Source: Candidatus Heimdallarchaeota archaeon
Lineage (GTDB): Archaea; Asgardarchaeota; Heimdallarchaeia; Heimdallarchaeales; Kariarchaeaceae
Assembly: GCA_030149205.1 (NCBI GenBank)
Contig: JASBSB010000003.1
Span: 180,001-212,000 of the forward strand
Reading direction: 5' to 3'
DNA: 32,000 nt
This document shows, piece by piece, positions 1-4,544 of this stretch. Numbering within the stretch: position 1 is the stretch's first letter; every line of letters begins with the position of its first letter. Below the pieces are notes generated by a model. That model worked only from the letters and a program-made list of their open reading frames with translations, was not told where the DNA came from and searched no databases. The position numbers were made by a program, and so were the translations under genes.

Positions 1-1382
1 ACTCCAAATTCTAAAGTTTTTAATGCAATTGCATCTTCAATCCCAGCACCCATAGGATGTCCGGTAAATCCTTTTGTGTTAGTTATAAAAATATTTTGAG
101 CATGATCCCCAAAAACGTGTCTTAAGGATTCGATCTCTGCAGCTGCACTACCACCTCTTGCGGGGGTGTAGGTCTCATGACTCATAAAAATACAAGACTC
201 AGAAATCTCTTCAGGAGTTAATGCGTGTTCTGCTGTTACTTTCTTAAAAAAGTACTCAAATTCAGAAGAGATATGAGTCACATCAAGCCTAGTTCCATGA
301 AATGCTGAGTTTGCATAGTGAGAGCTTAGGATTTGAGCTATAGGGGCAATGCCTCTTCTTTTAGCTTCTTCCTCGGTTTCAATTACCAAACCAACAGCAC
401 CCATTCCCACGATCATGCCATGCCTTCTCTCATCAAAAGGCAGTGCTGCTTTTGTAACGTCTCCCTCGGTTGTAGCTGCTCCAGAGGATAAAAATCCTGA
501 ACCTATCCAGGGGAACAGATGATCACTCGTGACATTGTCAGAACCAATAATTATTACTCGTTTACATCTCCCGTTTCGTATCCAGTCTTGAGCGATTCCA
601 ACAGCCTGAGTTGTGGATGCACACGCAGCATTCACCTGAGTGTTTGGACCTCTGGCTTTGATGAGTTGTGCAAATTGAGAATGACCCATTGATAAAATTC
701 TGAAGAGAAACTTTCGATTGAATATATACTCAGGTGTATTAGATTCAAGCTCTTCTAATATATTTTCAATGAATTCTATTATTCTCTCCTTGTCCTCAGA
801 ATCTTTTAGTTTTCGATGAATTTCAGAGTATATTATACGTGTTAATGTTTTTTCATCATCAGATTTTTTCCACTTGTAATACCGTGTGAGTTCATCTACC
901 AGACTATCAAACCCAGGAAATGCCGAAGCAAAAATTACGCCTGTATCATCTTGTAACTCTTTGGGTAATACCCAATCACCTGGGAGGTAACTTCCAGTTG
1001 TAGTTTTGACGTATTCTCTCTGAAGTGGGATGTAAGCATCCTTAAGGGCTTCAAGGCCTGCTGCAATCGCAAGTTTTGTTGATGAATCATAGGTTTCAAT
1101 TAATTTTTCTGCTAACTGAAATTCTGCCACTAAATCAAATTTTCCGGGTTGTGCAGCTAATTTAATGACATCAGACCGCTTGTTGATTTTGTCTAGGGTT
1201 GGGCTCCCCTTGTCTCTTTTTACTAATTTGACTATGTTTTTGTCAGTTTGTTCATCTAAAGCGACCTCTGATAATTGATCAATGAGGTTTTCTCCCCTAA
1301 ATATTCTTTGGATATTTTTTGAATCAAAGATTTCTTTGTATTTACCCGGAAGACCTACCCCTGTACCTGTAACTACAATATT
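1..1382 (-). other. Domain KS2: FabF/FabB-like ketosynthase fused in the same polypeptide (partial)
   Basis: NIVVTGTGVGLPG, RGPNTQVNAACAST, PFDERRHGMIVGMGA, SHETYT, TKGFTGHPMGAG; Cys-His-His intact. Confidence 0.85.
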
Positions 1383-4300: not shown

Positions 4301-4544
4301 TTTTGGTGTAGGTTTTATCTGGTGCACCTTTGTCAGTGTTGTAATACAGTTTAGGATCCCAACGTTCAGAATCTACTTCAGTGATAGAATTTTTTCCTGA
4401 TGTTATGTTTTCCCAAAATTCTTTTGAATTTAATGCGTCTGGCATTATAGCCCCTACACCAATTATCGCTACAGGTTCGAGAACATTGATTCTAGGTTCT
4501 TGAAATTGAATGTTTTCTGATTTTGTAGAGTTGTTTGACACCAT
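1..4544 (-). CDS. Type I polyketide/fatty-acid synthase, KS-AT-KS architecture; 3'-truncated by the window edge (>1514 aa)
   Basis: Manual translation from ATG 4544 (MVSNNSTKSENIQF...) is open to position 1. KS1 motifs: EPVAIIGVGAIMP, DSMPGELANVIAGRIAN, DAACASS (C231), EAHGTST (H365), KSQIGHLKSAAG (H405), SSFGFGGTNFH. AT motifs: FPGQGSQY, GHSLGE (S704), SAAFHS (H809). KS2 motifs: NAACAST (C1308), SHETYT (H1456), TKGFTGHPMGAG (H1496). Absent from the ORF track because it has no stop codon inside the window. Confidence 0.95.
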   Translation of the reverse strand, partial: MVSNNSTKSENIQFQEPRINVLEPVAIIGVGAIMPDALNSKEFWENITSGKNSITEVDSERWDPKLYYNTDKGAPDKTYTKIGGFVKNFEFNGLNFRIPPNMAKQIDPLQQLALTAAKEALEDANYENKNFNRENTAVILGNSMGGEVVREYTRRVYFPEVVETLRETPEFSKLESEQQVLLLENLEKQYKSRFREINEDSMPGELANVIAGRIANVFNLRGKNLTTDAACASSMAAIDEAYKSLISKEVDVVLCGGADRSMDVSTYVKFCKIGALSPDGSYPFDERANGFVMGEGVGFFVLKRLSDAISHGDKIYALVRGVGSSSDGRGKGITAPNPIGQELAIRRALKAGKVSPHEISLIEAHGTSTKVGDVVEVDTISKVFMEDNVKLSSIPIGSIKSQIGHLKSAAGAAAIIKVALAIYNKVLPPSINFENPNPNIDWEKSPFYVNTKTKKWECEGLRTAGVSSFGFGGTNFHVVMQEYNPNYSYDFENTKDYEDQVIEFFVDSEFASEPIFLSAETKSELINQVNKIRESIPDERDSRYSLLNLPDSFNPMFKERVALAPKNIEELQKELDMVQTLLDDSSNFSFYQKRGIFYSDTLPEGKTVFMFPGQGSQYVNMLKELSTKFPIVKKTISEADEVLFEFLGEPLSGIIYSKSGKEKELEEKLKQTQFTQPAMLLADIAVFRLLQTLGVEPDMVAGHSLGEYAALVAANVLSFSDALKAVAVRGKAMANVDASDKGSMASVNAPYEKIEEILKTIDDYVIPANKNSTTSTVISGSTVGIEKAIKVFSENGISCVKLNVSAAFHSEIVAPAAQELAEFLRQITFNKPTIPVSSNVLGELFPEDPEKIRSLLEKQVESAVEWVQQINNLYKNGGRIFVEVGPKRALSSFVETILSDENSLTLITVHPKKGETKQLNEALAGLFAAGKMVIKPSIEGNLIDKSIYDVKVATPTLSHFSYSNKFTKTPQVKEISPQIRTALTKDEFQGEIQHSFNSDNYITADAKYDPMFKSYLQFQGDLLNKFVEESFNRFKQESSLKLSDKISRMGINLDNIVVTGTGVGLPGKYKEIFDSKNIQRIFRGENLIDQLSEVALDEQTDKNIVKLVKRDKGSPTLDKINKRSDVIKLAAQPGKFDLVAEFQLAEKLIETYDSSTKLAIAAGLEALKDAYIPLQREYVKTTTGSYLPGDWVLPKELQDDTGVIFASAFPGFDSLVDELTRYYKWKKSDDEKTLTRIIYSEIHRKLKDSEDKERIIEFIENILEELESNTPEYIFNRKFLFRILSMGHSQFAQLIKARGPNTQVNAACASTTQAVGIAQDWIRNGRCKRVIIIGSDNVTSDHLFPWIGSGFLSSGAATTEGDVTKAALPFDERRHGMIVGMGAVGLVIETEEEAKRRGIAPIAQILSSHYANSAFHGTRLDVTHISSEFEYFFKKVTAEHALTPEEISESCIFMSHETYTPARGGSAAAEIESLRHVFGDHAQNIFITNTKGFTGHPMGAGIEDAIALKTLEFG
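1759..2730 (-). other. Domain AT: acyltransferase, probably malonyl-CoA specific
   Basis: KTVFMFPGQGSQY, TQFTQPA, GHSLGEY, VSAAFHS and FVEVGPK motifs. xAFH rather than YASH suggests malonyl. Boundaries approximate. Confidence 0.88.
3097..4478 (-). other. Domain KS1: type I (PfaA/HglE-like) beta-ketoacyl synthase
   Basis: Complete Cys-His-His triad. DSMPGxLANVIAGRIAN, PFDERANGFVMGEG and SSSDGRGKGITAP resemble PUFA-synthase-type KS domains. Boundaries approximate. Confidence 0.9.

Follow-up and report, generated by a model that had tools for sequence, protein, structure and literature searches.

A 32,000-nucleotide stretch of the genome of a Candidatus Heimdallarchaeota archaeon (contig JASBSB010000003.1, positions 180,001 to 212,000; hereafter the window) begins, on the minus strand, inside a megasynthase gene whose product carries two ketosynthase (KS) domains separated by an acyltransferase (AT). 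The protein is an archaeal member of the Type R family of secondary-lipid synthases, in which the second KS fold has been annotated as a chain-length factor (CLF). This fold (KS2) instead appears to be an active-type ketosynthase that derives from FabF, is conserved and has an unusual gate signature, a reassignment that would apply family-wide and is new here. The picture that we favor, with moderate confidence and from sequence evidence, is of an iterative, self-priming synthase in which two active KSs share one set of acyl carrier proteins (ACPs), KS2 handling short chains and the first KS (KS1) longer ones.

The open frame starts at window position 4553 (TTG) or 4544 (ATG) and runs off the window start, which truncates the gene at residue 1514 of 3,278 and leaves only its front half inside. 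With neighbouring DNA included, the full gene spans L004:9708-19553, with 3,281 codons when counted from the TTG; the recorded form (P0003) has the ATG start and 3,278 residues. Pfam and NCBIfam models place the domains in the order KS1, AT, KS2, four ACPs, ketoreductase (KR), dehydratase (DH) and phosphopantetheinyl transferase (PPTase). Both KSs thus lie upstream of one shared ACP array, which starts ∼130 residues past KS2, just beyond the window. All four ACPs carry GIDT, with Thr at the usual place of the phosphopantetheine Ser (L004:13100-14250; residues about 1780–2103). The whole protein scores 1099 bits against the PfaA model TIGR02813 (cut-off 1010), mostly from KS1-AT (positions 8–915). 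Judged by its domain content, the single protein covers the whole fatty-acid cycle save for enoyl reduction, for which the next gene would provide the enzyme.

An earlier reading of the window from its letters alone (hereafter the original prediction) had described a KS-AT-KS chain without an ACP between the KSs, a PfaA-like KS1 with C231, H365 and H405 as its triad, and a linker of ∼115 residues lacking GxDS. These points stand, with residue numbers that are exact for the ATG start. KS1 is PfaA-like by residue mapping, tree grouping and the TIGR02813 match, and neither Pfam search nor motif reading finds a PP-binding domain, GxDS or GxDT in the AT-KS2 linker. The picture of the carriers was partial: four ACPs follow KS2, and their motif is GIDT rather than GxDS. 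The linker varies more, and has more gaps, than any other part of the protein among 108 relatives (column identity 0.03–0.2 with many gaps at residues about 936–1045) and therefore reads as flexible. A hidden carrier domain in it was rejected on the missing Pfam match, the missing motifs and the variable sequence. The AT is, from its motifs, presumably of the malonyl type.

KS2 is best matched among NCBIfam models by fabF (TIGR03150), at 146 bits, which is well under the curated equivalog cut-off of 493.75 bits. FabF enzymes are also its best solved relatives in the Protein Data Bank, by sequence and by profile, and an AlphaFold2 model of KS2 built with 69 relatives (predicted local distance difference test score, pLDDT, 89.9) has a template-modelling (TM) score of 0.87 to FabF structures. 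The catalytic residues are retained throughout the family. In all 111 KS2 domains compared, archaeal and bacterial, the residues matching C163, H303, H340, K335, F400, T305 and E314 (FabF numbering) are unvarying; at T307 a single domain has Ser and the other 110 have Thr. The same catalytic-set residues are retained in all 116 KS1 domains, likewise archaeal and bacterial. KS2 also keeps FabF Phe202. The triad C1308/H1456/H1496, the type II-like features and the PFDxRRxG motif (here PFDERRHG) that the original prediction assigned to KS2 are all confirmed, with FabF as the best match, and the structure prediction it had suggested yields a FabF-like fold.

CLFs are KS folds without the active-site Cys and other catalytic residues. 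As references, the CLFs of three PfaA/PfaC pairs were taken from Pseudomonadota genomes in which PfaA scored above the TIGR02813 cut-off; all three have Glu for the Cys and have lost the Lys or the Phe. The Cys, both His, the Lys and the Phe are all present in 111 of 111 KS2 domains. A maximum-likelihood tree was built from 63 KS domains, with type II polyketide synthase (PKS) KS-α and CLF sequences and one FabF-like row (L112) left out. Its main split (SH-aLRT support 100) separates KS1, PfaA KS, PfaC KS and PfaC CLF from FabF, FabB, KS2 and stand-alone KS2-like proteins. KS1 clusters with the PfaA and PfaC KS domains; KS2 and the stand-alone forms make up one clade on a long stem branch of 3.9 changes per site. 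Forcing KS2 and the CLFs into a clade costs 42.6 log-likelihood units (approximately unbiased (AU) test, p = 0.0008). The CLF label for KS2 was thus rejected by the invariant catalytic set, the AU test, the FabF-like fold and the existence of stand-alone paralogs. An origin of KS2 by duplication of KS1 was rejected too: the two are 21% identical, and the main split places them apart. By and large, the clades of the KS1 subtree recur in that of KS2, which suggests that both domains have been inherited as a pair from the origin of the family onward. The original prediction had proposed two active condensing centres and named grouping with inactive CLFs as evidence to the contrary; KS2 sides with FabF and FabB, and conservation, phylogeny and predicted fold all argue for two centres.

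KS2 departs from FabF at its gates. In FabF, a back gate made up of Ile108 and Phe202 stands at about C7–C8, and the I108F mutant mainly extends C6 to C8 and is cerulenin-resistant (PMC9006962); a 2026 preprint likewise reports that I108F yields chiefly C6–C8 (bioRxiv 10.64898/2026.02.26.708327). KS2 has Phe at the Ile108 position, opposite its conserved counterpart of Phe202, together with Val/Ile at Ala193 and Leu/Met at Gly198. The front gate of FabF is stabilised in the open state by the Asp265-Asn404 pair, which is kept in all KSs save the type II PKS 'polyketone' KSs; in these, Leu replaces the loop-2 Pro and blocks gate opening. A bulky residue at Gly310 fills the side pocket into which the loop moves on opening (PMC9006962). 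In KS2, Ser stands at Asp265 and Leu at Pro272 in 111 of 111 relatives, Leu, Ile or Val occupies the Asn404 position so that the pair is gone, and Ser1466/Ala1467 replace Gly310/Asp311 within the SHETYTPARGGS motif. This motif is invariant in the family and served as a scan pattern. The Asp and Asn of the pair are retained by KS1, FabF, FabB, PfaA KS and PfaC KS; in KS1 they are D327 and N475, with Met144 at the back-gate position. A Met at the Ile108 site gates long chains in the mitochondrial KS (PMC9006962). The key KS2 sites were consistent across two MAFFT runs and hhalign. These residues point to a tight back gate and a non-opening front gate in KS2, next to an intact condensation centre, and to a Met back gate and a normal front gate in KS1.

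Unlike FabF, KS2 also bears an N-terminal extension, a loop of ∼17 residues, a two-helix hairpin of ∼45 residues and a conserved C-terminal tail. The insert in the hairpin region measures 60–71 residues in all fused KS2 domains versus 22 in FabF, and is absent from the stand-alone paralog described below. The loss of the D265-N404 pair and the Leu for the loop-2 Pro recall the type II PKS 'polyketone' KS-α (act KS, 1TQY; AntD, 6SMO) (PMC9006962). In sequence and profile searches with KS2, however, FabF outranks KS-α. Type II PKS KS-α require a CLF partner and work without cycling through KR, DH or enoyl reductase.

The KS-AT-KS architecture, which the original prediction considered unusual, is real and is not new. 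It was catalogued in 2011 as the Type R secondary-lipid synthase: one pfaA homolog with the order KS-malonyl acyltransferase (MAT)-CLF-ACP(3–6)-KR followed by a PPTase, sometimes with an acetyl-CoA carboxylase gene, and with an unknown product (Shulse & Allen 2011, PLoS One 6:e20146, PMC3098273). The named hosts were Koribacter, Solibacter, Elusimicrobium and Roseiflexus (PMC3098273). Full-text literature searches returned nothing on this enzyme beyond that report, and no characterised member of the family. The archaeal protein agrees with Type R in being a single PfaA homolog with KS, MAT, a second KS fold, four ACPs (range 3–6) and KR, in its associated PPTase, although this is fused at the C-terminus here and encoded by a downstream gene in the original description, and in having carboxylase genes nearby, since Type R genes often adjoin those of acetyl-CoA carboxylase. 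It differs from the published description in that its second KS fold has the full invariant catalytic set and is not a CLF, and in that the archaeal operon includes FabI and a FabH-like gene, with no type II fatty acid synthase beside it. Relatives from Korobacteraceae, Bryobacteraceae and Chloroflexia, which are families or classes of the Type R hosts rather than the named genomes, share the architecture and have KS2 domains 49–53% identical.

The family is large. Mapping it by motif, as the original prediction had suggested, with the KS2 patterns SHETYTP[AR]R and NTKGFTGH and one genome per species, found at least 600 loci. The best 80 of these, which were compared, come from Heimdallarchaeota, Thermoplasmatota, Chloroflexota, Acidobacteriota (including Korobacteraceae and Bryobacteraceae), Myxococcota, Actinomycetota and others. 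Among these 80, the order KS1-AT-KS2-KR-DH holds in every locus with enough sequence, and in most the synthase is adjoined by carboxylase genes and has a carboxyltransferase next to it; a PPTase match right after DH is found in many bacterial relatives too. An exhaustive profile-free search gave ∼595 clusters (50% identity) at E ≤ 1e-30 to KS2, mostly of proteins of 2,000–4,000 residues with a few free-standing forms of 520–590 residues. The nearest megasynthase homologs belong to Heimdallarchaeota or Kariarchaeaceae, and within the family of this archaeon KS2 occurs in 7 of 10 genomes, and in a sister family in 23 of 29. In the closed genome of Ca. Heimdallarchaeum aukensis (CP084166, about 485–492 kb), an extra open reading frame (1,510 residues; KS and AT matches) lies directly upstream of a 2,729-residue KS-AT-KS2 gene. 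P0024 and other Asgard proteins of ∼3,580 residues belong to a second Asgard clade; they have ∼700 extra residues before KS1 and do not rely on a separate FabI; these long forms contain a fused N-terminal NMO/FabK-type enoyl reductase (333–591). A fused FabI in relatives was considered and rejected, the PF13561 matches overlapping KR.

The megasynthase is the fifth gene of a minus-strand operon (Table 1). The product of the first gene has a FabH fold and keeps the Cys (DFSLGCAS), with Ser for the FabH catalytic His and His for the Asn in an alignment to 8vd9. Given these substitutions, it may not condense at all but transfer acyl groups, in priming or release. An identical gene order, including the neighbouring RtcB gene, is found in another Heimdallarchaeota metagenome-assembled genome (L015), whose KS2 is 69% identical. 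The RtcB RNA ligase gene (window 9400–10842, minus strand) and an archease gene (L004:8448-8927, plus strand) flank the lipid operon. Farther along, at window 10982–13258 and 13408–15543 (minus strand), lie tandem paralogs of 758 and 711 amino acids whose sole Pfam match is SBP_bac_5, a family-5 solute-binding-protein model.

Table 1. Features of the megasynthase and its operon. Positions refer to the window unless a locus or residues are given; domain rows given as residues are Pfam/NCBIfam assignments in TTG numbering (3,281-residue translation).
Feature	Position	Strand	Details
KS1, PfaA-type (type I) ketosynthase	3060..4484	-	residues 21-495; PF00109, PF02801, PF16197
KS1 C231 (DAACASS)	3852-3854	-	catalytic residue by mapping
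KS1 H365 (EAHGTST)	3450-3452	-	catalytic residue by mapping
KS1 H405 (IGHLKS)	3330-3332	-	catalytic residue by mapping
AT domain	1830..2723	-	PF00698 at 2.6e-46; TIGR00128 fabD 232 bits; GHSLG and AAFHS motifs
AT-KS2 linker, ~115 residues (about 933-1051)	1392..1748	-	no Pfam match
KS2, FabF-like ketosynthase	1..1391	-	starts at residue 1052; runs to ~1585 at G000:C7:179790
KS2 Phe1209 at FabF Ile108 back gate	918..920	-	Phe in 110/111 relatives
KS2 helical hairpin insert, not in FabF	738..911	-	residues about 1212-1269; AlphaFold2 helices 161-194, 199-218
KS2 C1308 (NAACAST)	621-623	-	catalytic
KS2 Phe1351 = FabF Phe202, conserved, opposite Phe1209	492-494	-	alignment
KS2 gating loop 2 (NSAFHGTRLD)	285..308	-	Ser1413 at FabF Asp265, Leu1420 at Pro272
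KS2 SHETYTPARGGS motif, first catalytic His then three-residue insert	147..179	-	alignments
KS2 H1456 (SHETYTPARGGS)	177-179	-	catalytic
KS2 K1491	72-74	-	catalytic
KS2 H1496 (TKGFTGHPMGAG)	57-59	-	catalytic
KS (N- and C-terminal Pfam domains)	residues 26-437		Pfam
AT	residues 611-908		Pfam
Second KS	residues about 1055-1590		Pfam and NCBIfam
KR	residues 2423-2649		Pfam and NCBIfam
PKS-type DH	residues 2782-3039		Pfam and NCBIfam
4'-Phosphopantetheinyl transferase (ACPS domain), fused at C-terminus	residues 3176-3257		Pfam
FabH (KAS III) fold protein, operon gene 1	8397..9347	-	PF08541
Biotin carboxylase	6861..8390	-	PF02786, PF00289, PF02785
Biotin carboxyl carrier protein	6286..6870	-	PF00364
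Acyl-CoA carboxylase carboxyltransferase subunit, directly upstream of megasynthase	4644..6224	-	PF01039 at 1.9e-189
FabI-type enoyl reductase, overlaps megasynthase end	L004:8924-9760	-	Pfam/NCBIfam

The rest of the genome contains little else of a fatty-acid pathway. Its only PP-binding domains are the four of the megasynthase, its sole FabD match is the megasynthase's own AT, no FabA/FabZ was found, and PlsX and AcpP had no match in tblastn searches with E. coli queries. GpsA is represented by weak Rossmann-type Pfam matches only; three PlsC-type acyltransferases and one of the PlsY type are encoded elsewhere. No FabF/B-type KS gene was found elsewhere in the genome except a stand-alone KS2-type paralog of 496 residues (G000:C8:519454-520941, minus strand; L009:9451-10941), which is 43% identical to KS2, keeps the Cys-His-His-Lys-Phe set and the SHETYTP and TKGFTGH motifs, and adjoins an ABC transporter. 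Similar stand-alone genes with full catalytic sets occur in further Heimdall genomes (L114, L115), and neither in these nor in the present genome was a KS or carrier gene found beside them. Since the megasynthase holds the genome's only carriers, the free-standing enzymes probably act on them in trans.

Comparison with polyunsaturated fatty acid (PUFA) synthases helps to frame how two KSs might cooperate. The megasynthase resembles PfaA (TIGR02813) in KS1-AT, tandem ACPs, KR and the PKS-type DH, with a score above the model's cut-off. PfaA differs in having no KS between AT and the ACPs, and its partners PfaB, PfaC and PfaD are absent here. The inserted KS2 and the missing partners speak against a true PUFA synthase. 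Unlike the extra fold of PfaC, a CLF without the Cys (Glu in the three references), KS2 is active-type and FabF-derived and sits in a PfaA-like chain. The two systems are alike in that two KS folds serve one tandem ACP set iteratively. In PUFA synthases, two active KS domains have been shown experimentally to alternate by chain length and structure (PMC11962503). The original prediction was right that the PfaC CLF lacks the Cys, and its background was incomplete in that PUFA synthases already use two active KSs (PMC11962503).

On the favored picture, the protein would be a Type R megasynthase of the type I, fatty-acid kind that works iteratively and primes itself, with a fused PPTase that activates its own carriers. 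The operon's biotin carboxylase, biotin carboxyl carrier protein and carboxyltransferase would make malonyl-CoA, and FabI would serve as the enoyl reductase. KS1 and KS2 would both condense, served by the same four downstream ACPs, and by analogy with PUFA synthases would split the elongation rounds by chain length. KS2 would most likely take acetyl or short acyl chains, for priming and the early rounds to roughly C6–C8, with the longer ones left to KS1; a saturated acyl chain would result and be passed to the PlsC/PlsY-type acyltransferases. The short-chain role of KS2 is suggested by its Phe-Phe back gate, its bulkier pocket lining and a front gate without the opening residues of FabF.

Several points weigh against this picture. 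The direction of the KS1/KS2 split is its weakest part, being read from gate and pocket residues in alignments of ∼20–25% identity to FabF. Because the stem branch is long (3.9), the KS2 pocket may have been rebuilt in a way hidden from alignment. The direction could be reversed, and the FabH-like gene might do the priming instead. Neither a thioesterase nor, by tblastn, PlsX was found for release of the chain. Most bacterial members have no reductase gene beside the synthase, and the product may for this reason differ between hosts.

A second reading, which we consider unlikely, takes KS2 as another general elongating KS and has the split run the other way or follow acyl structure, with KS1, for example, priming and KS2 carrying out bulk or late elongation. 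The complete catalytic sets of both KSs are compatible with it, the alternation of the PUFA synthase KSs is not simply short versus long (PMC11962503), and the KS2 hairpin and inserts could form an alternative acyl pocket, as has been proposed for FabB (bioRxiv 10.64898/2026.02.26.708327). However, the Phe at Ile108 and the bulkier residues at Ala193 and Gly198 are nearly invariant (n = 111) and match the engineered short-chain FabF, and it is KS1 that has the Met gate of long-chain KSs.

KS folds work as dimers. KS2 might thus pair with KS1 as a KS/CLF-like heterodimer and act mainly as a chain-length-setting or malonyl-decarboxylating partner, an arrangement that seems to us improbable. It would be in line with the published CLF annotation (PMC3098273) and with the loss of D265-N404 that KS2 has in common with CLFs and type II PKS KSs. 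Co-folding of KS1 with KS2 gives it weak support, with a score of 0.49 against 0.00 for the best of three controls; of 80 solved complexes, 58 reach the pass mark, as do 2 of 110 mismatched pairs, and passes at ≤0.60 comprise only 7 of the 80 solved complexes and both of the mismatches. At least 83% of contacts were common to the runs, and the partner had a pLDDT of at least 79. The pass may reflect a memory of solved KS dimers, and the co-fold does not separate a KS1-KS2 heterodimer from two homodimers. Against such a pairing, Cys, His, His, Lys and Phe persist in every KS2, the Cys being lost from true CLFs; a clade of KS2 and the PfaC CLFs is rejected by the AU test; and a whole AT and the variable linker of ∼115 residues lie between KS1 and KS2. 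Stand-alone KS2-type genes exist without an adjacent partner KS, which favors self-pairing of KS2.

OleA has a thiolase/KAS III-type Cys-His-Asn site, and Pks13 a type I KS that works with FadD32 and two carrier domains. A head-to-head joining of two finished chains in either manner, which the original prediction had raised and for which the mere presence of a second condensing domain speaks, is very improbable and found no support, as KS2 is nearest to FabF and has the FabF-type Cys-His-His-Lys site, whose His-His-Lys set is that of elongation KSs that decarboxylate malonyl groups; the pocket predicted for it is narrow rather than doubled; and the operon has no ole-type or FadD32-type partner genes.

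Returning to the favored picture of two condensing KSs split by chain length, a bolder extension can be put forward tentatively, as possible rather than probable. KS2 and its free-standing relatives may form a new functional class of KS: FabF-derived, with a non-opening front gate and a short pocket, self-priming from malonyl-ACP, confined to the first rounds, and replacing FabH within a one-protein synthase. This synthase would then be the sole source of fatty acyl chains in Heimdall-group Asgard archaea, possibly for ester lipids.

The KS-AT-KS family is widespread, extending over Chloroflexota, Acidobacteriota, Myxococcota, Actinomycetota, Thermoplasmatota and Asgard archaea. Reading its supposed CLF as a second active ketosynthase would alter both how the family is annotated and how its members are dissected, and the signature of gate and pocket residues offers a testable prediction of how they may start and extend chains. 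Since the megasynthase holds the only carriers in this genome and no type II pathway accompanies it, the way in which chains are started and extended here would bear on whether close archaeal kin of eukaryotes make fatty acids.

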